This document shows positions 12,724 to 25,910 of a stretch of 32,000 nucleotides of DNA, piece by piece; positions within the stretch are counted from its first letter, which is position 1; each line of letters opens with the position of its first letter. The position numbers and the translations under genes are program-made. Below the pieces are notes generated by a model. That model was not told where the DNA came from. It did not search any database and worked only from the letters and a program-made list of their open reading frames with translations. The stretch is from NCBI GenBank assembly GCA_965250005.1, contig OZ252279.1, positions 1,650,001-1,682,000 of the forward strand, given 5' to 3'. Source of the stretch: Demequinaceae bacterium. Its GTDB lineage: Bacteria > Actinomycetota > Actinomycetes > Actinomycetales > Demequinaceae.

Positions 12724-13605
12724 TCAGGTGCGGCGCGAGGTGGGACGCGTGCGCATCCGCAGCGTGAGCCCGAACAGCAGAATCGGCAGAAGCAAGGCAA
12801 GCCAGATTCCGGGCGGGACCGAGGATGGCCCGGTTTGGCGCGGGGAGTAGTCGGCTAGGGCGGCCTCGATCGCGGGCGTCCAGGCGGCCGCGATTTTGGC
12901 GTTGCCGGAGTCGTTGGGGTGCACGCCGTCGTAGGTGTCGGTGCCGCTGTCGAAGCCAGCGTCGAGCACGACCGCCGTCACGGGGGACTTCGCGGTGGTG
13001 ACCTTCTCGGCCCAGGCGAGGATGCGGGGGTTGAGCTGGTCGATAGTGGCGTTGCATGTCGGGCAACGAGTCTTGGCCATCGGCAACATCGTGCCGATCA
13101 GCAACGTGATCTCGGGGTCGTATTCCCGCATTTGGATGAGCAGAACCTGGTACTGGGTGATGACCTCGTCGACGTCCGCACCGGTCCAGACATCGTTGGT
13201 GCCGAGCAGCATGACAATGATGTCCGGCTGACTGCGCGTGAGCAGGCCGGCGAGCGTGATCTTGGACGTAGCCGCGTGCGTGGTCAGGCCAGGGTAGCCA
13301 GCGTTGTTGGCCTCCCAGACGTTGCCCGCAGCGTCCCTGACTTCGCCGCACTCCTCGGGCTTGCGCGGCCCGACTGCGTGGAACCGGTGCCCCGCATTGC
13401 TGAGGGTCTGCCAAATGGTCGCGCGCCAGCAGCCGGGAGAGCCGGTGATCGAGTCGCCAAGGAACATGACGTTTGGCGCCGCGACGTCGTGCGGCGCAGT
13501 GCTTGGGGACGGGTCCGGGGCTGCGGCACCGGGAGCCGCGAACGTGAACGTCATCGCTAGCGTGACGGAGAGCGCGCCAAGCATCTTCAAGGCCGTGAGC
13601 CCCAT
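12724..13605 (-). CDS. Secreted SGNH/GDSL-family hydrolase with a C-terminal membrane anchor
   Basis: I moved the start to the internal ATG (MGLTALKMLGALSVTLAMTFTFAAPGAAAP looks like a signal peptide), which removes the overlap with the HAD gene. Block I FLGDSITG, block III GTNDV and block V DGVHPND are present. The C-terminus is a hydrophobic helix followed by an Arg-rich tail. Confidence 0.8.
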   Translation of the reverse strand: MGLTALKMLGALSVTLAMTFTFAAPGAAAPDPSPSTAPHDVAAPNVMFLGDSITGSPGCWRATIWQTLSNAGHRFHAVGPRKPEECGEVRDAAGNVWEANNAGYPGLTTHAATSKITLAGLLTRSQPDIIVMLLGTNDVWTGADVDEVITQYQVLLIQMREYDPEITLLIGTMLPMAKTRCPTCNATIDQLNPRILAWAEKVTTAKSPVTAVVLDAGFDSGTDTYDGVHPNDSGNAKIAAAWTPAIEAALADYSPRQTGPSSVPPGIWLALLLPILLFGLTLRMRTRPTSRRT

Positions 13606-13616
13606 GACGACGGAGC

Positions 13617-14414
13617 CTAGCCCTCGCGTGGATGCCGACGGCGGCGGGTCAGGACCCACCAGCCCATGCCTACGGCCATCGCGGCCGCTAGGAATCCGGC
13701 GGCCATATTCCGGCGGCGCGCGCTCTCGCGGAGCGCGACCGGCTTGCGGAAGTGAAGCACGCCCCAGCCGTGCTCTGCTGCGGTCTTGCGCATGCCGCGG
13801 TCAGGGTTGACGGCAAACCCGTGGCCGACCACGTTGAGCATCGGCCCGTCCGTGATCGAGTCGGAGTAGGCGTAGCAGCGCTCCAGGTCGTACCCCTTGT
13901 CGCTGGCGAGAGAGCGCATGGCGGCGGCCTTCGCAGGACCGAACGCATACAGGCTGATCTCGCCGGTGTACTTGCCGTCCTTGATCTCCATCTGTGAGCC
14001 GATCGCGTGGTCTGCGCCAAGCAGTTCGGCGATGGGGGCGACCACCTCCATACCGGACGCGGACACGATCACCACGTCGCGGCCATTCGCCTGATGGCGC
14101 CTGATTAGCGCGAGCGCCTCCTCGTATACGACAGGGTCGATCTGCTCCTTGACGGTTTCGCCGACGATCTTCCTGACTTTCGCCACGTCCCAGCCCGTGA
14201 CCACATCGCTCATGGCATCCCGCAGGCGTTCCGTTTGGCGCTCGTCGGCGCCACCGACCATGAAGAGGAACTGCGCATAGGCGGCGCGGATCGCGTCAGT
14301 CCGGCGCAGCAGTCCCTCGTCGAAGAACTCGCGAGAAAATGTGGTCGCCGAGGACGTCGCAATGATGGTCTTGTCCAAGTCAAAGAACGCGGCGGTTCGC
14401 GCGGGCGTGGTCAT
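13617..14414 (-). CDS. HAD-IB family hydrolase (SerB-like) with a C-terminal TM segment
   Basis: I moved the start to the ATG preceded by GGGAGGA. Motif I FFDLDKTII, motif II VIVSAS and the downstream YSDSITDGPML are present. The C-terminus FLAAAMAVGMGWWVL is hydrophobic. Confidence 0.85.
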   Translation of the reverse strand: MTTPARTAAFFDLDKTIIATSSATTFSREFFDEGLLRRTDAIRAAYAQFLFMVGGADERQTERLRDAMSDVVTGWDVAKVRKIVGETVKEQIDPVVYEEALALIRRHQANGRDVVIVSASGMEVVAPIAELLGADHAIGSQMEIKDGKYTGEISLYAFGPAKAAAMRSLASDKGYDLERCYAYSDSITDGPMLNVVGHGFAVNPDRGMRKTAAEHGWGVLHFRKPVALRESARRRNMAAGFLAAAMAVGMGWWVLTRRRRHPREG

Positions 14415-17473: not shown

Positions 17474-17511
17474 AGAGGGCCCGGACTACCAAATGGCGGT
17501 CCGGGCCCTCT
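17474..17511. terminator. Hairpin 1 between the convergent tad operon and the membrane-protein gene
   Basis: AGAGGGCCCGGAC (17474-17486) pairs perfectly with GTCCGGGCCCTCT (17499-17511), giving a 13-bp stem with a 12-nt loop. Confidence 0.55.
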
Positions 17512-17528: not shown

Positions 17529-17569
17529 CCTGTGCGTGGCGCGAGCTGAGGGACCGCGCCACGCACAGG
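17529..17569. terminator. Hairpin 2 between the convergent genes
   Basis: CCTGTGCGTGGCGCG (17529-17543) pairs perfectly with CGCGCCACGCACAGG (17555-17569), giving a 15-bp stem with an 11-nt loop. It lies 11 nt beyond the stop at 17580. Confidence 0.55.
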
Positions 17570-17579
17570 AACTTGGTGA

Positions 17580-18725
17580 TTATGCCGTCGGAGTCGTTTC
17601 GACCCACTCGGCGCCGTTCCACTCCCACGTGTGGAGTGTGTCCTCTTCTTCGTATTCAATAACGGCGTCCTTGTGGAAGTAGCCCTTGGGGACTTCACTG
17701 CACCCAGGCCACCACTTGTAAGTTTCTGGGTCCATGAGAATCCAGGACTCTGAACCTTTGTGGCAACTGTACTGGTGATCTGCGCCATAGATTGACGCGA
17801 TGTCGCCTTCACACTTGTACTGGCCTCCACCGATCGAGCCCCAGGTTCCCTGGTCGTCAAGGTGGCGGTAGCCGTAGTACGAGTTGCTGGATCCACTCTC
17901 GCAGACGGCGAGCTTGTCGTAAGACGGCGAGTAGTTGCCGTAGTACCAAGAACTGGTCGCCTCGTCGTACCATGATGCACAGGCGTAGTATTGCTCGTCG
18001 AAGAAGTAGAAGTAGCCGGGGTTGGACTTCCACTCGTCCTTGTTGCAGTTGTAGTACCCAGCGCCTTCAGCGCGGTTTGGTCCGATGCCGTCCGCGTTGC
18101 ACTCGATGAAGGAATCTACGTAGTGATCCCAATACCAGTTGGGCTTCACATCCCAATTGTTGATGTCGCAGTTCCAGTACTTGTACGGCTTGGTGTCGTG
18201 GTCGTATTCGACGCACGTGGGCGCGGGGTCTGGTTCCGGCTCCGTCCTTGGCGGAGTATTGGCGGCGGCGGCGGCGGCGGCGGCTTCGGCGGCGGCGGCG
18301 GCTTCGGCGGCGGCCTTCTCGGCCTCGTCAGCTGCCTTCGCAGCCTCCTCGGCCTGTTTGGCCGAGAGCTTCTCGGCACTGAGGTTGGCCGCGATCTCCA
18401 GTTCTTCGTAGATCTTCTGGAGATACTCTTCTTTCGCTCCGACGTCATCGCCCAACGTATTGCTGAAGTTTTCGTTGAGACCGTTCTCAATGAGGTTGCG
18501 GTCGCGGAACCCCGGGTCTTCTTCGGCGTTGAGGCCCACGAAGAATTGCGCACCTAGGGCGCCAAGGACCATGGCGCTGACCGAACCGGCGAGGGCGGCC
18601 GAGCCCTGGCGAATCGCGCGCTTGCGTTTGGTGGACGCAACCAACTGGTCGACGACGGTACCTGAGGGCGCGTAGCCCGTGGAGCCCATCTGACCCAACT
18701 GGTCCATCTGCTCGTTAATGTTCAC
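17580..18725 (-). CDS. Single-pass membrane protein P1 (381 aa): short cytoplasmic N-terminus, TM, Ala/Glu-rich stalk, Cys/aromatic-rich ectodomain. Candidate anti-sigma or sensor partner of the upstream ECF sigma.
   Basis: The GTG start overlaps the sigma gene stop (GTGA at 18722-18725). KRKRAIRQ precedes the TM helix GSAALAGSVSAMVLGALGAQFFV, predicting an N-in topology. The C-terminal ~210 aa carry 9 Cys and many Tyr/Trp. I do not recognise the family. Confidence 0.7.
   Translation of the reverse strand: MNINEQMDQLGQMGSTGYAPSGTVVDQLVASTKRKRAIRQGSAALAGSVSAMVLGALGAQFFVGLNAEEDPGFRDRNLIENGLNENFSNTLGDDVGAKEEYLQKIYEELEIAANLSAEKLSAKQAEEAAKAADEAEKAAAEAAAAAEAAAAAAAANTPPRTEPEPDPAPTCVEYDHDTKPYKYWNCDINNWDVKPNWYWDHYVDSFIECNADGIGPNRAEGAGYYNCNKDEWKSNPGYFYFFDEQYYACASWYDEATSSWYYGNYSPSYDKLAVCESGSSNSYYGYRHLDDQGTWGSIGGGQYKCEGDIASIYGADHQYSCHKGSESWILMDPETYKWWPGCSEVPKGYFHKDAVIEYEEEDTLHTWEWNGAEWVETTPTA
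18262..18315. repeat. Trinucleotide tract (GGC)8-TTC-(GGC)5-TTC-(GGC)3 inside P1
   Basis: Read directly from the sequence. On the coding (minus) strand it encodes the poly-Ala/Glu run AAAEAAAAAEAAAAAAAA in the stalk. Confidence 0.9.
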
Positions 18726-19279
18726 GATTTTGCCTTCCTTGCGGGAGTCTCCTGGATGGTGCTGTAGTCGACACCCTGTGAGGGGTTGTCCTCCAGTGCA
18801 CCCAGATGGCCGCGCAGCTTGACGGCTGCGTCAGAGAGGTAGCGCCGCACGGCGCCTTCAGAAATACCGAGCTCGCGGCCGATGGCCACGGCGGTCAGGT
18901 CGTCGTAGAAGCGAAGCACCGTACAAGCGCGCTCGCGGGGGCTCAGGTGGCGCAGGGCCTCCTGAAGGTCCGTCCGGAACTCTACGGCCGGGGCGTCAGA
19001 CTCGGCTTCGTCATTGCGGTCCAGCAAGTGGAACACACGCTTCCATGCGACGTCTTTGCGGCCAGCATCCATGTGGGCGGTAAACATTGCCCGCCGAACA
19101 TAGGATTCGGCTTCCCCCATCGACACGCTGGACTTGCCGCGCGAGAACGTCCTGACCACGGCGTCGTGGAAGAGGTCCTCAGCGTCGCGCCCATTGCCGG
19201 TGAGGAGGTACCCGTAGCCCACGAGGGCCGATCCACGCCTCCGCACGAGCTCTTCTAAGGTTTCGCTCCAATTCGGCAT
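18722..19279 (-). CDS. ECF-type sigma-70 family factor, sigma-1 (185 aa; actinobacterial SigE-family-like)
   Basis: I moved the start to the ATG at 19279, preceded by GGGAGG. Region 2 is LVGYGYLLTGNGRDAEDLFHDAVVRTFSR...YVRRAM. Region 4 is LSPRERACTVLRFYDDLTAVAIGRELGISEGAVRRYLSDA. The N-terminus MPNWSETLEELVRRR aligns with MSDWQSTMEALVRDR of the paralog. Confidence 0.85.
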   Translation of the reverse strand: MPNWSETLEELVRRRGSALVGYGYLLTGNGRDAEDLFHDAVVRTFSRGKSSVSMGEAESYVRRAMFTAHMDAGRKDVAWKRVFHLLDRNDEAESDAPAVEFRTDLQEALRHLSPRERACTVLRFYDDLTAVAIGRELGISEGAVRRYLSDAAVKLRGHLGALEDNPSQGVDYSTIQETPARKAKS

Positions 19280-19326
19280 GGTTACCTCCCTTGCTGGGCG
19301 GAGCAGACTTCCGCCTCTAATTACCC

Positions 19327-19369
19327 ATACGAGCGGGGCGGGGGAAACCGTGGGGCATTCTGGCAAATG
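19327..19369 (-). promoter_or_regulatory. Conserved upstream block A, a candidate ECF-type promoter of sigma-1/P1
   Basis: On the minus strand it reads ...CCCCACGGTTTCCCCCGCCCCGCTCGTAT, and its nearest end is 48 nt upstream of the sigma-1 ATG. It matches block B (20831-20873) at 29 of 43 positions in an ungapped hand alignment, and at 23 of 29 in the core. Confidence 0.4.
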
Positions 19370-19385
19370 TGAGTCAACTCACATT
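19366..19385. promoter_or_regulatory. 20-bp palindrome AATGTGAGT-CA-ACTCACATT immediately upstream of block A
   Basis: Perfect 9-bp arms with a 2-nt centre. A 2-nt loop is too short for an RNA hairpin, so this looks more like a dimeric protein operator. Confidence 0.35.
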
Positions 19386-19529
19386 CCCCGCAAGCCCAGT
19401 GGTTTCGCAACGGCGACGCCTGTTCTCCAGTATCCCGGCCGCGCGCTCAAGAAGTAAGGGTCCGGTTCGTGGTCATTGTCACAGTTTCCAACAGTCGTTT
19501 CGGCGCGATCTGCACGCTGAACGCGACAG

Positions 19530-19574
19530 AAAACCCGGCCGACGCGAAGGCTGAGGGTCTTCGTATCGACCGGG
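19530..19574 (-). terminator. Intrinsic terminator after P2
   Basis: In the minus orientation, CCCGGTCGATACGAAG pairs with CTTCGCGTCGGCCGGG over 16 positions (2 mismatches, 1 G-U) around a 9-nt loop. TTTTCTG follows directly. It begins 20 nt after the P2 stop. Confidence 0.6.
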
Positions 19575-19593
19575 CTGGCTCTATATGCGTCCG

Positions 19594-20733
19594 TCAGGCG
19601 CTGGGTGACGGCTCCGGGTCGGGCGCCGGAGTGGTCTCAACCCACGCGGACCCGCTCCACGCGAACGTGCGGCCCTCATACTCGATGACCGAGTCCTTGT
19701 GGAAGTATCCCGTGGTGCTGCAACCGTCGATGAAGTCGCCGTAGACGAACCACTTGTAGTTCGCGTCCGTTGGGAACCACTTGCCCGTGGGGTTGGTGGC
19801 AACCGGGTGCTCGCCCTCGGGAATGCAACTCCATCGGACGGTCGTTCCGTACTTGTTCTTAAGTCCACCGGTGCACTTGTAGTCGCCTCCGCCAATCGAG
19901 GACCAAAGGTCGCCAATATATTGGTAGCCGTAGACCTGATTGTCGGTTTTGGAGCACTGAGCTAGTTTGCCGTAGCCCACGTTGTAGGCCCCTACACTCC
20001 ACGTACCAGAAGCCTCGTCGTAGAAGTCGACGCACTCGAGCACTTCTCCTTTGAAGTAGACGTACCCAATCGCAGGAACCCACTCGCCCTTGCCGCAGTC
20101 GTATGCGATGTTGGGGTGCGGGTTGTCACCGCACGTGCGGGCGACCCAGTCGAAGTCATCCCAGTACTCGCCGTCTGAAATGCGGTAGACCTTCTCGTCT
20201 GGATCGCAGTCGTTGTACTTGTACCCGTAGTCGTACGGTTCGCAACTACTACTACCGCCGCCGCCCTCGTCCTTGGGCGTCGAATTTGAGTCCTTGTCCG
20301 CGGCTTCTTTCGCCTCTTTCGCTGCCTTGGCGGCGGCTTCTTCCGCGGCCTTCGCGGCGGCCGCCTCCTTTTCGGCTAGCTCCTCGATCTGGATCTTGGC
20401 GGCAACCCTTAGTTCGTCGTAGATCTCCTTGAGGTATTCGTCTTTTGTTCCGTCGTCTTTGCCGAACGCCGAGTCATCGGTCCCATCGAAATTGTTCTCA
20501 ATGAGATTGCGGTCGCGGAAGCCGGGGTCATCCACTTCGAAGTCGACGAGGAACTGCGCCCCGAGCACCCCGAGGACAACCGCGCTTACGGACCCCACCA
20601 AGGCAGCCGAGCCGTGGCGAATGGATCGCGCACGCTTGGCGCGTGCGTGCAACTGGTCGACGACGGCATCCGAGGCGGCGTAGCCCACAGATCCCAACTG
20701 CCCCAATTCATCGATCTGTTCATTGATGTTCAC
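19594..20733 (-). CDS. Single-pass membrane protein P2 (379 aa), paralog of P1 with no sigma gene of its own
   Basis: I moved the start to the GTG at 20733, 8 nt after GGGAG, so that VNINEQIDELGQLGS aligns with MNINEQMDQLGQMGS of P1. The architecture is the same: basic stretch, TM, DPGFRDRNLIEN, Ala/Glu/Lys stalk, then an ectodomain with 9 Cys at matching positions and the shared C-terminal GYFHKD-VIEYE...AWVETTP. Confidence 0.7.
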   Translation of the reverse strand: MNINEQIDELGQLGSVGYAASDAVVDQLHARAKRARSIRHGSAALVGSVSAVVLGVLGAQFLVDFEVDDPGFRDRNLIENNFDGTDDSAFGKDDGTKDEYLKEIYDELRVAAKIQIEELAEKEAAAAKAAEEAAAKAAKEAKEAADKDSNSTPKDEGGGGSSSCEPYDYGYKYNDCDPDEKVYRISDGEYWDDFDWVARTCGDNPHPNIAYDCGKGEWVPAIGYVYFKGEVLECVDFYDEASGTWSVGAYNVGYGKLAQCSKTDNQVYGYQYIGDLWSSIGGGDYKCTGGLKNKYGTTVRWSCIPEGEHPVATNPTGKWFPTDANYKWFVYGDFIDGCSTTGYFHKDSVIEYEGRTFAWSGSAWVETTPAPDPEPSPSA

Positions 20734-20830
20734 TGTTCTGACTCCCAAGTGCTCGGTCCTCAGCGGGTACCGGTGTGGCGCCCAAGACCTAATTGATCGG
20801 AGCCGCCCATAAGAGCGCCTCTACCAACTA

Positions 20831-20873
20831 ATACGCGTGGGGGCGGGAAAACCTTGGGGGTACTTGTGAAATC
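20831..20873 (-). promoter_or_regulatory. Conserved upstream block B, a candidate promoter of P2
   Basis: On the minus strand it reads ...CCCCAAGGTTTTCCCGCCCCCACGCGTAT, and its nearest end is 98 nt upstream of the P2 start and directly after the terminator hairpin of the upstream operon. Its similarity to block A is described under that feature. Confidence 0.4.
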
Positions 20874-20886
20874 GGGCGCAAACGCC

Positions 20887-20924
20887 CACGGCCCCCACAT
20901 CCCGATGGGGGTGTGAGGGCCGTG
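20887..20924 (-). terminator. Long hairpin after the P3 gene
   Basis: CACGGCCC-C-CACATCCC-GATG-GGGGTGTG-A-GGGCCGTG forms two 8-bp helices with single-nucleotide bulges. It starts 35 nt after the P3 stop. On the minus strand it is followed by GGCGTTTGCG. Confidence 0.55.
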
Positions 20925-20958
20925 TCACCGCTCCGCAGTCCGTGGTAACGGCCGATGG

Positions 20959-22815
20959 CTAGTTGGTTGTGACCGTCACCGTTCCCAACGATGCCCACAT
21001 CTGCAGTTCCACCCATTGGTACGACGAGTCGCGCTCGGGCGCGATCGAAATGGTGTCCGGCTCTGGATCGATCGCGATGCCAGGTTCCGGCGCCCCGTAG
21101 AGGACGTCTCCAACGTACGTCTCGAGGTGAACTGACTGTTGGATCAGTAGCGTGTACTCGCCCGCGCGGAGCTCTGCTGGGCCGTTCTCGCTCCAGCAGG
21201 TGTTCACTTCGCGCCACAGATAACTACCGGCCAGAGATTCACCGGGAGCCAACTCGCCCCAGTTGGCTTGGTCCCCCTCGGGCGATGCCGCGAAAGCAGG
21301 CTCTACCGTGGCGGTGCTTCCCTCCGACTGGCGCGCCGCAAGCTCGGCATCTTGAATGTCGGCGGTGTCGCCGTAGCGGTTGATCTCCGTTGGCCAGCCC
21401 TCAGCAACGACCACCCCGTCTTTGATGAGGTAGACATTGCGGCTTGGCTGTCCGTAGAAACCGGGGATCGAGAACTCCGAGGCGTTTGTCACGGAGATCG
21501 CGACTTCGGGGTTGTTGTCGATCACCCATCCGTAGCTCACGCCCAAGCGCGACGGAAATTCGGCTTGGACATCGAGCCAGCCGAGATCGGCTGACACTTC
21601 GGGGAACCCTGCCTCGCCGTCGCCCCAGCTACATCCATAGAACGAGCGCTCGACGGGCTGCCCGAGTGCAGGGTCAGTGTCGTTCCACCCGCGGCCCTCT
21701 GAGTCGTCAGACTGCATAATCCACCGTGACGTCCCCGGCTCCATGCCCCAAACGTTGTTCTGGGCAGAGGTGCTGAACAGATCGCGAGCGAGTTGGGGCG
21801 TCAGGAAGTCGTCCGGAAGGACTGGCGGGACCCACGGTTCAGGAATGTACTGGCCAAACGGGTCCTCAACTGGATCTCCCGCAATGATGAACGGGATGGG
21901 CTCGCCCGTCGTCCGGAACTGGTCGTAGACGTACGGCTCGATCTCCAGGCTAGTGACGTCGGCGCCCCCCGACTCGTCTTTCGCGTCGGGCAACTCGGTC
22001 ACGAGGGGATCCGTCGCGGGATCCGGTTCGATGCTCGGGACGCCCGGATCCACTGACGTCTCAGGGTCCGCGTTTGGAGGCAAGACTTCGATGCTGGGCT
22101 CTGGAGCAGGTTCCGGCTCTGGAGCAGGCAAGGGTTCGATGGCGGTCTCGTCGTAATACGCAAACGACTGGCTCACAAGCAGGTCATATTTGCTTGCAGG
22201 CAGCGGCTGGCCGTCGAAGCAAGAAACAAACTCAGCCATAGTCACCAATTCAAGCGATGCGCCCTCGGGGAGCTCAAGCACAGTCAGTTCGGACCCGTCA
22301 GCGGGAACGGCCACGGCGACCACCATGCCGTCCCACAGCACTACAGCAGACGCGTGCGATGCGCGAATGTCCTGCTCGACGCTTGCGTTGGTGCTCGCGG
22401 TGAGACTGTACGGAACACTGGCAGTTGAGCCGCCCTCGACTTCCTGGTTCTCAGCCCAGTCGACGGTGAGAGAAAACGCACCATCGCCGTAGCCCCAGTC
22501 CTGCAATGGGTAGGAGCCGCAATAGCCCCAGTCCGCGAGGCGAGACATCTCGGCCGCCGCGTCACTGCTGAGGGACGAGCCGCCATCCTCTGCAGGTGCG
22601 GGCAGCGCCGTTGCAACTTCTTCTGAGGCAGCCGTGGGGTTGATGACGCCGATCGCGATGAGTGCCGCTGCGCCAGCGCCGGCGAGCGCGTTGCCGCCCA
22701 TTCGTGCACCTCGCTGGACGCGCACGCGCCGGGAGGCCGCAGCAACGGAAACGGATGCGTCTGAGACCGGCGCGCGATCTGCGGCGCCGTGAAGCGCGTC
22801 TGAGAGCTTCGTCAT
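20959..22815 (-). CDS. Single-pass membrane protein P3 (618 aa) with a duplicated two-cysteine ectodomain and a Pro/Glu/Asp-rich linker. Candidate partner of sigma-2.
   Basis: The ATG overlaps the sigma-2 stop (ATGA at 22812-22815). The N-terminus has about 40 residues ending RRVRVQRGAR before the TM helix GGNALAGAGAAALIAIGV. The two ectodomain modules share YCGS/YGCS, TNAS, VVLWDGMVVA/VYLIKDGVVVA, LPEGASL/LAPGESL and SCF...YDLLVSQS/TCW...YTLLIQQS. Confidence 0.7.
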   Translation of the reverse strand: MTKLSDALHGAADRAPVSDASVSVAAASRRVRVQRGARMGGNALAGAGAAALIAIGVINPTAASEEVATALPAPAEDGGSSLSSDAAAEMSRLADWGYCGSYPLQDWGYGDGAFSLTVDWAENQEVEGGSTASVPYSLTASTNASVEQDIRASHASAVVLWDGMVVAVAVPADGSELTVLELPEGASLELVTMAEFVSCFDGQPLPASKYDLLVSQSFAYYDETAIEPLPAPEPEPAPEPSIEVLPPNADPETSVDPGVPSIEPDPATDPLVTELPDAKDESGGADVTSLEIEPYVYDQFRTTGEPIPFIIAGDPVEDPFGQYIPEPWVPPVLPDDFLTPQLARDLFSTSAQNNVWGMEPGTSRWIMQSDDSEGRGWNDTDPALGQPVERSFYGCSWGDGEAGFPEVSADLGWLDVQAEFPSRLGVSYGWVIDNNPEVAISVTNASEFSIPGFYGQPSRNVYLIKDGVVVAEGWPTEINRYGDTADIQDAELAARQSEGSTATVEPAFAASPEGDQANWGELAPGESLAGSYLWREVNTCWSENGPAELRAGEYTLLIQQSVHLETYVGDVLYGAPEPGIAIDPEPDTISIAPERDSSYQWVELQMWASLGTVTVTTN

Positions 22816-23375
22816 GAGAAATTCCTTTCGGGGTCGATGGGCTCGTAGGGCGAGTTGACTACAGGTGCGGTCTCAATGTTGGTGTCCTCGAGGGGACCCA
22901 GCGCCAATTCCATGCGAGCGATGCCGTCGCTCAAGTAGCGCTTGATGCTGCCCTCCGCGAGCCCCAGTTGACGGCCGATTTGCGGCACTGTGAGGTCATC
23001 GAAGAAGCGCAACACGACGCACGCACGTTCGCGCGGCGGAAGTGTTCCCAGGGCGGTCGCAACGTCGGCGCTCAAGTCAATTGCGGAGGCCGCGTCGTCT
23101 GCCTGTTTGCCCGGACTAAAGAGATGTTGTACTCGTTGCCACCGCTGGTTGCGGCGGTACTGATCGATATAGACGGAGGTGATCGCTCGTCGTACATAGG
23201 CCTCTGCCTTGAGCGAGGTGAGCCCCGGTCGAGGCCGCGAAAACGTGCGCACGAGCGCATCCTGAACGAGGTCCTGCGCCCGCGTCGAGTTCCCGCAGAC
23301 TATATAGGCGTATCCCAGAAGGGCGCGCTCGCGGTCGCGAACGAGTGCTTCCATGGTGCTCTGCCAATCGCTCAT
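22812..23375 (-). CDS. ECF-type sigma-70 family factor, sigma-2 (187 aa), paralog of sigma-1
   Basis: I placed the start at the second ATG of GGAGGAATGATG. Region 2 is LLGYAYIVCGNSTRAQDLVQDALVRTFSR...YVRRAI. Region 4 is LPPRERACVVLRFFDDLTVPQIGRQLGLAEGSIKRYLSDG. Confidence 0.85.
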   Translation of the reverse strand: MSDWQSTMEALVRDRERALLGYAYIVCGNSTRAQDLVQDALVRTFSRPRPGLTSLKAEAYVRRAITSVYIDQYRRNQRWQRVQHLFSPGKQADDAASAIDLSADVATALGTLPPRERACVVLRFFDDLTVPQIGRQLGLAEGSIKRYLSDGIARMELALGPLEDTNIETAPVVNSPYEPIDPERNFS

Positions 23376-23503
23376 CATTCCTCCGTTGGGCTCTTCGATT
23401 TGAAGGCCCTTCTCGAATACGTGACGCCCGCCGGTCGCGAATCGTTGGGTCCAGTTGCCCGGCACCCCCCATGTTCCCCTAGACTCGCCTTCTACTTACG
23501 TAC

Positions 23504-23530
23504 CGCAGACATCGTTGTCTGCGTATTTTT
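23504..23530 (+). promoter_or_regulatory. Terminator-like hairpin plus T-tract in the hppA leader
   Basis: CGCAGACA-TCGT-TGTCTGCG forms a perfect 8-bp stem with a 4-nt loop, followed by TATTTTT. It ends 5 nt before the AAGGAGG RBS of hppA. Confidence 0.4.
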
Positions 23531-23546
23531 GTGTCAAGGAGGACGC

Positions 23547-25910
23547 ATGCAATCGCACGAAGAAGCGGCCATCGAGTTGGGCAATGACAGCCTGACCATT
23601 GTCGCCGTCATCGCCGTCATCGCGGTGGTTTCCCTCGCCTTCTCATACGTTCTACGCCGGCAAGTGTTGAAGGCACCCGACGGCACCACCAAGATGCAGA
23701 CGATCGCTCAGGCCATTCAGGAGGGCGCGAGCGCGTTCCTGAGTCGCCAGATGCGCACGCTTGTAGTGTTCGCAGCGGTGGTGTTCGGACTCCTGTTCCT
23801 GTTGCCCGCCGAGAACAACGGCATCCTGTGGGGACGGTCAATTGCCTTCCTCTTGGGCGCTGGCTTCAGCGCGGCCATCGGATACCTGGGCATGTGGCTC
23901 GCGGTCCGGGCGAATATTCGTGTCGCCTCGGCGGCGACGCGCGCGAACGGACGCACCGAGGGCGCGCGCATCGCGTTCCGCACGGGCGGTTCTGTTGGAA
24001 TGTCCGTCGTTGGCCTCGGACTCCTAGGCGCAACTTCGGTGGTCCTCATCTTCGGCGGCGACGCCGCGGCAGTTCTCGAGGGCTTCGGATTCGGTGCCGC
24101 GCTACTTGCGATGTTCATGCGAGTGGGTGGCGGAATCTTCACCAAGGCCGCCGACGTGGGTGCGGACCTGGTGGGCAAGGTCGAGCAGCACATCCCGGAG
24201 GACGACCCGCGCAACGCGGCGACCATCGCGGACAACGTTGGAGACAACGTTGGCGACTGCGCCGGTATGGCCGCAGACCTCTTCGAGTCTTACGCGGTGA
24301 TGCTCGTGGCCGCGCTCATCCTGGGCAAGGCCACGTTCGGCGTCGAGGGTCTCGTCTTCCCGCTGATCGTTACGGCGATCGGCGCGATTGTCGCAGCATT
24401 GGGTGTCTACGTCACACGCGTGCGCGAGGGAGAATCGGGGCTGGCCGCGATCAACCGCGGATTCTTCATCTCCGCCGTTGTTGGTGCTGGCCTCGCTGCG
24501 GCCGCTGCCTACAGCTACCTGCCGAGCAGCTTCGATGGCTTCACCGATGGCACGCTCACTGGCCACGGCGGAGACCCCCGCCTGGTGGCGACTATCGCAG
24601 TATTCGTCGGCATCGGCCTCGCAGGCATCATCCTGTGGCTGACTGGCTACTTCACTGACGTCGCGCAGAAGCCAACTATCCGCGTCGCTCGCAGTTCCCT
24701 CACGGGCGCCGCCACGGTGGTTCTGTCTGGCATTGGCCTCGGATTGTCTTCCGCGGTGTACACGGCTACCGTCATCGCTGGCGCCATCGTCATCCTGTTC
24801 TTCGTTTCGGGCGGCGCGGTCTATCTCGCACTCTTCCTCATCGCGCTCGCAGGCTGTGGCCTCCTGACAACGGTCGGCGTAATCGTCGCCATGGACACGT
24901 TCGGCCCCGTGAGCGACAACGCTCAAGGGATTGCCGAGATGTCAGGCGACGTTGACGCGGAGGGCGCGCAGATTCTGACGGACCTCGATGCTGTCGGCAA
25001 TACCACCAAGGCGATCACCAAGGGCATTGCGATCGCCACGGCGGTGCTCGCGGCATCCGCGCTGTTCGGCTCGTACCAGACGTCGGTTGCCGAAGCGCTC
25101 GAGCAGGCTGGCCGCGTTTCGGGTGAGTTCGCCCTCGCGGCGCTGAGCTACTCGGTTGCCTCACCCCTTACGCTTGTCGGCGTGATCATGGGTGGCGCGG
25201 TCGTGTTCCTCTTCTCGGGCCTCGCGATCGATGCGGTCACGCGAGCGGCGAGCACCATCGTGTTCGAGGTGCGCCGCCAGTTCCGCGAGATGCCTGGCAT
25301 CATGACCGGCAAGCAGCGGCCCGACTACGGCCGTGTGGTCGACATTTGCACCCGCGATTCGCTCAAGGAGCTCATCACCCCGGGAGTTCTGGCCGCTACG
25401 GCACCGGTCTTTGTGGGCTTCGCGATGGGCGTGGGTCCGCTCGCGGGCTTCCTCGCGGGCTCGATCGGAACGGGCGTGCTTATGGCCGTGTTCCTGGCGA
25501 ACTCAGGAGGATCGTGGGACAACGCCAAGAAGATTGTCGAGGACGGCCACCACGGCGGCAAGAATTCGCCGGCCCACGAAGCCACCGTCATTGGTGACAC
25601 CATCGGCGACCCGTTCAAGGACACCGCTGGCCCCGCGATCAACCCGCTAATCAAAGTCATGAACCTCGTGGCACTGTTGATCGCTCCTGCGGTGGTGGCC
25701 ATGTCGGTTGGCGACGGCGCTACCTCGTGGCGCTTCGCGGTTGCCGGCCTCGCGGCGGCCGCTGCAGTCTGGGCGGTTGCCCGTGCGTCTGTACGCACAC
25801 ACCGGGACACCATTGCAGAAGAAGTGCCCATGGTTGGTGCCGGGCCCGTGCGTTCTGCCGCCAAGGCTAAGAAGGCGCCTGCGAAGAAGAAGGCGTCCGC
25901 AAAGAAGTGA
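23547..25910 (+). CDS. hppA: K+-independent H+-translocating pyrophosphatase (membrane-bound PPase)
   Basis: An AAGGAGG RBS at 23536-23542 precedes the ATG at 23547; the track's longer ORF is an antisense read-through artefact. Motifs present: GGIFTKAADVGADLVGKVE, DNVGDNVGDCAGMAADLFESY, GGSWDNAKK and GDTIGDPFKDTAGPAINPLIKVMN. GNTTKA (Lys rather than Ala) marks the K+-independent class. The C-terminus is a Lys/Ala-rich tail. Confidence 0.93.
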   Translation: MQSHEEAAIELGNDSLTIVAVIAVIAVVSLAFSYVLRRQVLKAPDGTTKMQTIAQAIQEGASAFLSRQMRTLVVFAAVVFGLLFLLPAENNGILWGRSIAFLLGAGFSAAIGYLGMWLAVRANIRVASAATRANGRTEGARIAFRTGGSVGMSVVGLGLLGATSVVLIFGGDAAAVLEGFGFGAALLAMFMRVGGGIFTKAADVGADLVGKVEQHIPEDDPRNAATIADNVGDNVGDCAGMAADLFESYAVMLVAALILGKATFGVEGLVFPLIVTAIGAIVAALGVYVTRVREGESGLAAINRGFFISAVVGAGLAAAAAYSYLPSSFDGFTDGTLTGHGGDPRLVATIAVFVGIGLAGIILWLTGYFTDVAQKPTIRVARSSLTGAATVVLSGIGLGLSSAVYTATVIAGAIVILFFVSGGAVYLALFLIALAGCGLLTTVGVIVAMDTFGPVSDNAQGIAEMSGDVDAEGAQILTDLDAVGNTTKAITKGIAIATAVLAASALFGSYQTSVAEALEQAGRVSGEFALAALSYSVASPLTLVGVIMGGAVVFLFSGLAIDAVTRAASTIVFEVRRQFREMPGIMTGKQRPDYGRVVDICTRDSLKELITPGVLAATAPVFVGFAMGVGPLAGFLAGSIGTGVLMAVFLANSGGSWDNAKKIVEDGHHGGKNSPAHEATVIGDTIGDPFKDTAGPAINPLIKVMNLVALLIAPAVVAMSVGDGATSWRFAVAGLAAAAAVWAVARASVRTHRDTIAEEVPMVGAGPVRSAAKAKKAPAKKKASAKK

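Follow-up and report, generated by a model that had tools for sequence, protein, structure and literature searches.

Gene content of the locus

Here, we describe a cluster of extracytoplasmic function (ECF) sigma factor genes and membrane protein genes from a Demequinaceae bacterium. It lies in a stretch of 32,000 nucleotides (contig OZ252279.1, positions 1,650,001 to 1,682,000 of the forward strand), which is called the window throughout and supplies all coordinates given below unless a related locus is named. According to the list of open reading frames (ORFs) of the window, the minus strand carries five ORFs between 17580 and 23465, arranged as a sig2/P3 pair, a lone gene P2 and a sig1/P1 pair.

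The gene sig2 (22812-23375, minus strand) encodes sigma-2, an ECF sigma factor of approximately 187 amino acids starting with MSDWQ. Its longest ORF spans 22812-23465, and the ATG at 23375 is the likely start because the orthologs begin with MSDW or MADW. The start codon of P3 (20959-22815, minus strand), the partner of sigma-2, overlaps the stop codon of sig2 in an ATGA. P2 (19594-20733, minus strand) is a paralog of P1 without an adjoining sigma gene. Within its longest ORF, 19594-20748, the likely start is a GTG at 20733, which is preceded by a GGGAG Shine-Dalgarno sequence; the resulting product of 379 residues is identical to the database protein P0001. The gene sig1 (18722-19279, minus strand; longest ORF 18722-19366, likely start ATG 19279) encodes sigma-1, an ECF sigma factor of 185 amino acids beginning with MPNWSE. 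P1 (17580-18725, minus strand), the partner of sigma-1, starts within the stop codon of sig1 in a GTGA; its family was aligned, and an AlphaFold2 (AF2) model was made of it. All five are real genes and not chance ORFs, since homolog families exist and the ratio of nonsynonymous to synonymous substitution rates (dN/dS) lies at 0.15-0.36. An Rfam search over the whole window gave no match.

An earlier sequence-only reading of the window had proposed three minus-strand units with ATGA and GTGA overlaps, and both overlaps can be read directly in the sequence. It had also called the two sigma factors clear paralogs, which agrees with 47% identity over 165 amino acids (E 3e-55). For both sigma-1 and sigma-2, Pfam reports Sigma70_r2 and Sigma70_r4/r4_2 only, which is the domain content of an ECF sigma factor, and a match to TIGR02937 of 66 bits, compared to a cut-off of 42.9, points in the same direction. 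The top NCBIfam model for both is TIGR02983 (SigE-fam_strep) with 114.1 bits for sigma-2 and 101.1 bits for sigma-1; both scores are below the curated cut-off of 141.55 bits, and neither protein is counted as a member. The closest solved relative of sigma-1 is mycobacterial SigE, at an E-value of only 1.5e-10. A literature search found no paper on Demequina sigma factors and none on the term "orphan anti-sigma factor".

The three partner proteins

From end to end, P1 and P2 align with 43% identity (BLASTP, E 4e-82). BLASTP finds no similarity of P3 to P1 or P2, and homology between the P1 and P3 families was rejected at an hhalign probability of 4%. According to topology predictions, P1 and P2 have a tail of 44 residues with the N-terminus inside the cell, five Lys/Arg residues in a cluster at the tail end and a transmembrane (TM) segment at 45-63. 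P3 has a tail of 39 residues, seven Lys/Arg residues in the cluster and a TM segment at 40-58. The residues past each TM segment are acidic or neutral in all three proteins, and thus the positive-inside rule is obeyed. This is the common plan given by the earlier reading, in which an Arg/Lys cluster closes a tail of about 40 residues and a single TM helix leads to a large ectodomain. It had further noted that the tail is shorter than a class I anti-sigma domain requires and lacks the zinc motif HxxxCxxC. Both points stand: the tails comprise 39-44 residues, compared to approximately 70-90 residues in four helices for a class I domain (zf-HC2, RskA, RsdA), and they lack the motif because they hold neither Cys nor His. 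No Pfam, NCBIfam or PDB sequence family matches P1, P2 or P3, and the isolated N-terminal segments have no match in Pfam at E-values up to 10 and none among the PDB sequences.

The tail is the part under the strongest conservation. In the P1 family, invariant columns concentrate at residues 1-80, with the tail and TM segment as the most conserved part of the protein. The P3 family carries a conserved N-terminal motif, LSDxLRxxADRAP. In the AF2 models, cytoplasmic helices are predicted with low confidence at residues 3-13 and 22 to about 40 of P1, and at residues 3-13 and about 24-39 of P3.

Beyond the TM segment, P1 exhibits an invariant juxtamembrane DRNLIEN box, followed by a helical stalk of approximately 60 residues (about 95-155) rich in Ala, Glu and Lys and an all-beta domain with many Cys, Trp and Tyr residues. 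The predicted local distance difference test (pLDDT) averages 68 over the P1 model and reaches 70-93 in the ectodomain. Nine Cys residues are present in the ectodomain of P1, nine in that of P2 and four in that of P3. A Foldseek comparison of the P1 model to PDB and BFVD gave no significant match (best E 0.27, TM-score at most 0.14). With neither a Kelch match in Pfam nor a fold match, P1 and P2 are not classified as Kelch or beta-propeller proteins. At the C-terminus of P1 (about residues 355-379, window positions of about 17586-17660), a hairpin motif GWxWxGxxWVE resembles the repeated Kelch blade motif; these 25 residues with GWxWxGxxW overlap weak DUF2510 matches in Kelch proteins, a likeness at motif level only.

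The P3 model (mean pLDDT 71) shows an ectodomain of approximately 560 residues, built as a chain of beta-sandwich modules with four invariant Cys residues. Foldseek relates it at a probability of approximately 1.0 to NPC2, to the MG domains of C3 and to NBR1, over some 110 residues with E-values of 5e-4 to 1e-2 and 9-15% identity. Since the matched immunoglobulin-like fold is generic, no function can be assigned to the P3 ectodomain. A BLASTP comparison between two of the modules was not significant and thus does not establish an internal duplication; a shared DGxVVA motif is visible. The earlier reading could not assign the ectodomains to a known family, and neither the profile searches with hidden Markov models (HMMs) nor Foldseek placed any of the ectodomains in a characterised family.

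Two promoter classes and the promoter of P2

The upstream regions of all orthologs were aligned, and position weight matrices were derived from the orthologous loci with the window left out. With these matrices, both strands of the 32-kb window (64 kb of sequence) and 806 kb of related loci were scanned. Upstream of sig2, the motif CCCAACGwTT-N13-CGTC(G/A)(A/C) is found in 54 of 55 loci, and upstream of sig1, CCCAA(G/T)GkTT-N13-CGTA(T/C)T is found in all 28 loci. Within each class, the -35 and -10 blocks do not change, and the sequence of the 13-nt spacer is free to vary. The classes differ chiefly in one base of the -35 block (AAC versus AAG/AAT) and one base of the -10 block (CGTC versus CGTA). 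The usual layout of an ECF promoter is AAC-N17-CGT. An AAC-like -35 and a CGT-like -10 element at this spacing are present upstream of both sig1 and sig2, where they would constitute autoregulatory promoters.

Three such promoters are found in the window, all on the minus strand. The sig2-type promoter at 23417-23449 consists of the -35 block CCCAACGATT (23449-23440), N13 and the -10 block CGTCAC (23426-23421), and scores 27.8 bits on the sig2 matrix. The sig1-P1 operon is preceded at 19322-19354 by a sig1-type promoter with the -35 block CCCACGGTTT, N13 and the -10 block CGTATG (19331-19326), which reaches 30.0 bits with the sig1 matrix, compared to 1.0 bit with the sig2 matrix. P2 has its own promoter at 20826-20858, with the -35 block CCCAAGGTTT (20858-20849), N13 and the -10 block CGTATT (20835-20830). 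It is of the sig1 type as well, with 36.3 bits on the sig1 matrix versus 11.2 bits on the sig2 matrix, and lies inside a 44-nt direct repeat (D6) that it has in common with the sig1 promoter.

In the window, the sig1 matrix has two strong matches only, those of P2 and sig1, with the runner-up at 12.1 bits, and the sig2 matrix has a single one, upstream of sig2. Within the 806 kb of related loci, every match of at least 18 bits (79 of 79) is located upstream of sig1, sig2 or an orphan, i.e., sigma-less, P1 paralog, which makes the motifs highly specific. The scan of the related loci revealed no further regulon member over 7 kb in either direction. The neighboring Tad pilus genes were ruled out as direct sigma targets, as no matrix match lies upstream of them. 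A sigma-70 promoter scan of the region from 17 to 24 kb gave no match and is uninformative for ECF promoters.

The promoters of the B. subtilis sigma factors SigX and SigW are reportedly told apart by the -10 element, CGAC versus CGTA. The situation is alike in that paralogous ECF sigma factors are separated mainly by one base of a CGTx -10 motif. It is unlike in that the organism and the sigma groups are different and that, in our case, discrimination is suggested by conservation of the upstream regions.

An exact palindrome TGTGA-N6-TCACA is located at 19368-19383, 13 nt upstream of the sig1 -35 block, and is the sole such site in the window. TGTGA-N6-TCACA is the consensus of CRP/GlxR-type regulators, and the palindrome is thus a candidate site for one. 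A variant is retained in 28 of 28 sig1 loci. The distance of 13 nt places its center near -60, which is a class I activator position. The orphan promoters lack the palindrome, except in locus L015. It also follows the P3 stop codon in Demequina genomes without sig1-P1 (e.g., L038, 8919-8934), where the next gene is a convergent Tad gene. The palindrome could be what remains of a lost sig1 promoter, or a regulatory site in its own right.

Distribution in the Demequinaceae and recurrence of sigma-less paralogs

A scan with one genome per species provided 58 Demequinaceae loci, which were annotated with HMMs built from the family alignments. A check of co-occurrence finds sig2 and P3 adjacent or overlapping in 58 of 58 loci. 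The sig1-P1 pair occurs in approximately 25 of them, mostly from uncultured lineages, and always beside a convergent Tad pilus cluster. P2 is not present in most relatives. From the universal sig2-P3 pair and the restricted sig1-P1 pair it follows that the ancestral arrangement had two units and that P2 is a lineage-specific addition. Both partner families are small. At 90% identity, the P3 family comprises 38 clusters, whose named members all belong to Demequina or the Demequinaceae. The P1/P2 family forms 20 clusters among 5.8 billion proteins, and an exhaustive HMM search of 1.84 billion proteins yielded approximately 30 representatives, all other matches being Kelch proteins.

P2 is not a singular case. 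Five other Demequinaceae loci carry a sigma-less P1 paralog, namely L007, L057, L008, L010 and L015. In L007 and L057 the orphan is located between P3 and sig1, as in the window, and in L008 and L010 it is found downstream of P1. Each of the five is preceded by a sig1-type promoter that reaches 22-34 bits with the sig1 matrix, compared to 0-11 bits with the sig2 matrix. With P2 included, the respective ranges for the six orphans are 22-36 bits and 0-11 bits, and none of them was used to train the matrices. In L057, a metagenome-assembled genome, the promoter of the orphan (764-1780) is only some 32 nt away from the ATG.

Origin and selection of the orphans

Two relatives exhibit intermediate stages. 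Locus L030 carries an unreduced tandem duplicate, sig1-P1-sig1'-P1'. In L015, three elements lie between the sig1 stop and the P1 start, namely the palindrome, a promoter of the sig1 type and 64 nt that repeat the 3' end of sig1. This remnant represents a sigma gene that has lost its interior. In the window, the region upstream of P2 aligns to the sig1 locus over approximately 93 nt around the promoter, and a weak match of 14 out of 19 positions is found at the Shine-Dalgarno sequence and start. A sigma gene remnant upstream of P2 is not supported by this promoter homology and weak match, and the deletion model therefore rests on L015 and L030.

In a neighbor-joining tree, the orphans of L008, L010 and L015 form one cluster and those of L007 and L057 another, each group being sister to coupled copies. 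Orphan clades thus extend across genomes, which implies that orphans were kept through speciation. The tree topology suggests at least two to three duplications, or fewer given gene conversion.

The orphans are under purifying selection as far as the orthologous pair of L008 and L010, the only one tested, is concerned: dN/dS is 0.16 in the tail and TM segment and 0.30 in the rest. Between P1 and P2 of the window, dS is saturated (1.3-1.4), and dN/dS amounts to 0.15 for residues 2-65, compared to 0.36 for the remainder. Both proteins are 71% identical in the tail and TM segment and 46% identical in the rest, and the tail and TM segment of P2 do not resemble those of P3. Over the first 65 residues, the coupled and orphan copies of L008 and of L010 are more alike within a genome (91% and 82%) than orthologs are between genomes (75-77%). 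The ectodomains show the reverse pattern, with similarity following orthology. Since dS is lower in the N-terminal segment, the match is at least partly due to gene conversion. Whatever its share, gene conversion maintains the fit of both tails to one and the same resident sigma factor.

A proposed second partner for sigma-1

Putting these observations together, we consider it rather probable that the locus comprises two autoregulated ECF sigma modules, with P2 as a sigma-1-controlled second partner that likely binds sigma-1. On this reading, the product of each gene at position +1 would be a single-pass membrane protein with its N-terminus inside, whose short conserved tail sequesters the cognate sigma factor while the ectodomain receives an envelope signal. 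Each sigma factor would read its own promoter class, which results in autoregulation. P2 would have arisen by tandem duplication of the sig1-P1 unit and subsequent loss of the sigma copy. Because P2 has kept the sig1-type core promoter, sigma-1 should transcribe it; because it has kept the P1-type tail, it most likely binds sigma-1. Two partners whose ectodomains have diverged would thus restrain sigma-1, and P2, induced by sigma-1 itself, would serve as an additional brake or input that provides negative feedback or AND-type logic. Partner release may occur by regulated proteolysis, for which the DRNLIEN box and the TM segment, with its many small residues (Gly, Ala, Ser), are candidate sites only.

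The sequence-only reading had already raised the possibility of one sigma factor shared by P1 and P2. The assignment of P2 to sigma-1 is now in good agreement with its promoter class, its P1-like tail and TM segment and the recurrence of sigma-less paralogs; that it binds sigma-1 is a prediction. In terms of separate steps, P2 is most likely a second sigma-1-controlled partner and probably an anti-sigma factor.

Several observations weigh against this interpretation. The tails resemble no known anti-sigma family in the Pfam and PDB sequence searches, and the N-terminal regions of the P1 and P3 models have a pLDDT of 35-55. The promoters are phylogenetic footprints and as such putative. In L015, sig1 has no translationally coupled partner. 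The matched N-termini of L008 and L010 need not reflect co-evolution with the sigma factor. The L057 orphan lacks the conserved MNINEQ tail and has a basic tail of 19 residues instead, with TM segment and ectodomain kept, so that the ectodomain may have a role without sigma binding. Finally, the hairpin that follows P3 (see below) has no U tract, which leaves room for read-through from sig2-P3 into P2.

Some of these points would suit a different explanation, by which P1, P2 and P3 are surface or envelope products of the regulon and no anti-sigma factors, and the sigma factors are controlled otherwise, e.g., via the TGTGA-N6-TCACA site. The absence of a known anti-sigma domain from all three proteins, purifying selection on the ectodomains and a conserved palindrome of regulator type upstream of the sig1 promoter speak in its favor. 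So do the retention of a sig1-type promoter by the tail-less L057 orphan, the uncoupling of sig1 from P1 in L015 and the lack of other regulon members within 7 kb on either side. A pure surface protein would hardly be expected, however, to have the tail as its best-conserved segment, as is the case in both partner families. The stop/start overlaps imply stoichiometric co-expression, which is typical of sigma/anti-sigma pairs. The same architecture defines the putative anti-sigma factors in 114 of 157 ECF groups (PMC7826278). We therefore regard this explanation as unlikely. P2 could also act on P1 via the TM segment, stalk or ectodomain, or serve as a decoy for a ligand or a site-1 protease, without sequestering any sigma factor. 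P1 and P2 have the TM segment, the DRNLIEN box and the long Ala/Glu/Lys helix (about 95-155) in common, the TM and juxtamembrane region is homogenised between the paralogs of L008 and L010, and the L057 orphan without its tail fits well. For such a role in the membrane or outside the cell, however, P2 would not need the whole 44-residue tail that it retains under strong constraint (dN/dS 0.15). There is also no evidence for oligomerisation, and we give this possibility little credit. As a further possibility, P2 might be a duplicate in decay or a passenger, with read-through of sig2-P3 as the source of any expression; its absence from most relatives and the missing U tract behind P3 would be consistent with this. 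This is very improbable in view of an ORF that is intact despite saturated dS relative to P1, a dN/dS of 0.15-0.36 and a P2 promoter that outscores that of sig1. Moreover, orphans at the same and at other positions are kept across speciation and under purifying selection.

A more far-reaching version of the two-partner reading can be put forward only tentatively, and we are inclined to doubt it as a whole. By this version, the 40-residue tails represent an undescribed actinobacterial type of minimal anti-sigma factor, either a new class or a membrane-tethered class II. The orphans would be sigma-induced secondary anti-sigma factors that differ in their sensing ectodomain. A single ECF sigma factor would thereby combine two envelope signals, through an AND gate or adaptive feedback, in a circuit arising repeatedly by duplication and sigma deletion.

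Relation to known systems

In most ECF groups, the putative anti-sigma factor is encoded at position +1, has TM helices, is group-specific and does not match a Pfam anti-sigma family (PMC7826278). The present locus is of this known kind, i.e., an ECF sigma factor with a group-specific putative anti-sigma factor. The new part is the recurrent sigma-less paralog that keeps the promoter of the sigma factor.

With SigW/RsiW, RpoE/RseA and SigK/RskA, the two modules have in common sigma factors with sigma2 and sigma4 regions only, a translationally coupled +1 partner with a single TM segment and its N-terminus inside, and an autoregulated AAC-N17-CGT promoter. They differ in the tails of 39-44 residues, which are shorter than the class I domain of those partners, a three-helix bundle with a fourth helix (PMC6101532). 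P1, P2 and P3 are also unlike the canonical class I partners in having neither a zf-HC2 or RskA match in Pfam nor HxxxCxxC. Class II anti-sigma factors form a two-helix clamp, and class III is represented by RsbN (PMC6101532). A resemblance to class II, i.e., to CnrY and NepR, may be seen in the short candidate sigma-binding region and the two helices of the AF2 models; it would extend to tail length and the low-confidence two-helix prediction only. Sequence similarity to CnrY and NepR is not found, and the tails here are fused to an ectodomain of 320-560 residues. CnrY, in contrast, comprises 95 amino acids and operates together with CnrX as a separate sensor, and NepR is a soluble protein.

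One ECF sigma factor with two membrane partners is also met elsewhere. In B. subtilis, SigM has two of them, YhdL and YhdK. ECF107 is an ECF group with two putative anti-sigma factors (Casas-Pastor et al. 2021, PMC7826278). The partners of sigma-1 may likewise compete or cooperate. Unlike in these cases, the two partners here are paralogs, and the second one is located outside the sigma operon and equipped with its own copy of the promoter of the sigma factor. Arrays of autoregulated paralogs are known from SigI/RsgI of Clostridium thermocellum, where SigI is not an ECF sigma factor, each RsgI has its own SigI and the ectodomains are carbohydrate-binding modules. Multiple modules, a short N-terminal anti-sigma segment, one TM helix, divergent ectodomains and autoregulation are common features. 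The sigma factors of the window are of the ECF type, in contrast, P2 has no sigma factor of its own, and its ectodomain, like those of P1 and P3, belongs to no recognisable family.

ECF sigma/anti-sigma pairs are a major mechanism of bacterial signalling, and most of the actinobacterial partners are uncharacterised. The locus adds two small Demequinaceae-specific partner families with very short candidate sigma-binding tails. It also provides, from comparative genomics, two promoter classes that are set apart by two key bases and can be used for in vitro tests of specificity. A natural series leads from the duplicate in L030 via the remnant in L015 to the clean orphans of the window, L007, L008, L010 and L057, and thus to a circuit of one sigma factor and two partners. 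If P2 does bind sigma-1, this series would document a route to signal integration on a single ECF sigma factor, and the locus would supply orthogonal sigma, anti-sigma and promoter parts. Should P2 be an anti-sigma factor under the control of sigma-1, induction would make two brakes per sigma factor and result in a stronger shut-off or a two-signal requirement. No current concept is overturned by these findings; the promoter classes and the duplication series give clear, testable predictions.

Hairpins, additional modules and the sig2 upstream region

Hairpins had been predicted after P3 and P2 from the sequence. A simple terminator scan missed both, and the regions were folded instead. Both do fold strongly; a clear U tract is missing after P3. 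The hairpin after P3 (20887-20924, minus strand) has 17-nt arms that are 88% complementary, and its region folds with -49.6 kcal/mol (z-score -3.5). After P2, a hairpin at 19525-19576 on the minus strand (region -45.8 kcal/mol, z-score -4.7) is followed by UUUUCUGU; with a GC-rich stem and a U tract, it has the features of a Rho-independent terminator. Two strong hairpins at 17529-17569 and 17474-17511 (z-score -9.1) are located between the convergent P1 and Tad genes.

The sig2-P3 module duplicates as well, as can be concluded from a second, diverged sig2-P3-like pair in L010 (1230-3265), L031 (135-1361) and L063, which adjoins the main pair or lies elsewhere. Other relatives (L001, 8994-11106; L004, 8266-9436) have a third pair of ECF sigma factor and partner between genes for a HAD hydrolase and an MFS transporter. 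This partner follows the same plan of a short tail, Arg cluster, TM segment and ectodomain. In the window, the place of the third pair is taken by a GDSL/SGNH lipase-like gene (12724-13659, minus strand), whose product has a signal peptide and a C-terminal TM segment. The modules of P3 (about residues 96-225 and 390-560) and the ectodomains of the third pair (L001, 9529-11106; L004, 8801-9436) exhibit LGCG or YGCS near a conserved Cys as well as (V/L)xxDGxVV(A/G). These shared motifs suggest a common extracellular beta-sandwich module of the Demequinaceae that may serve several ECF partners.

On the plus strand at 23504-23533, a terminator-like hairpin CGCAGACATCGTTGTCTGCG, followed by TATTTTTGTG, is found in the leader of an H+-pyrophosphatase gene (23559-25910), just upstream of its Shine-Dalgarno sequence and start, and could be an attenuator. 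At about 23470-23490, the minus strand reads gagtctaggggaacatgg, and the motif GAGTCTAGGGGAC(G/A)ATGG is kept 30-40 nt upstream of the sig2 -35 block in most Demequinaceae loci. The opposite strand of this motif reads CCCCTAGACTC, with a -10-like hexamer TAGACT that would fit a promoter of the divergent pyrophosphatase gene.

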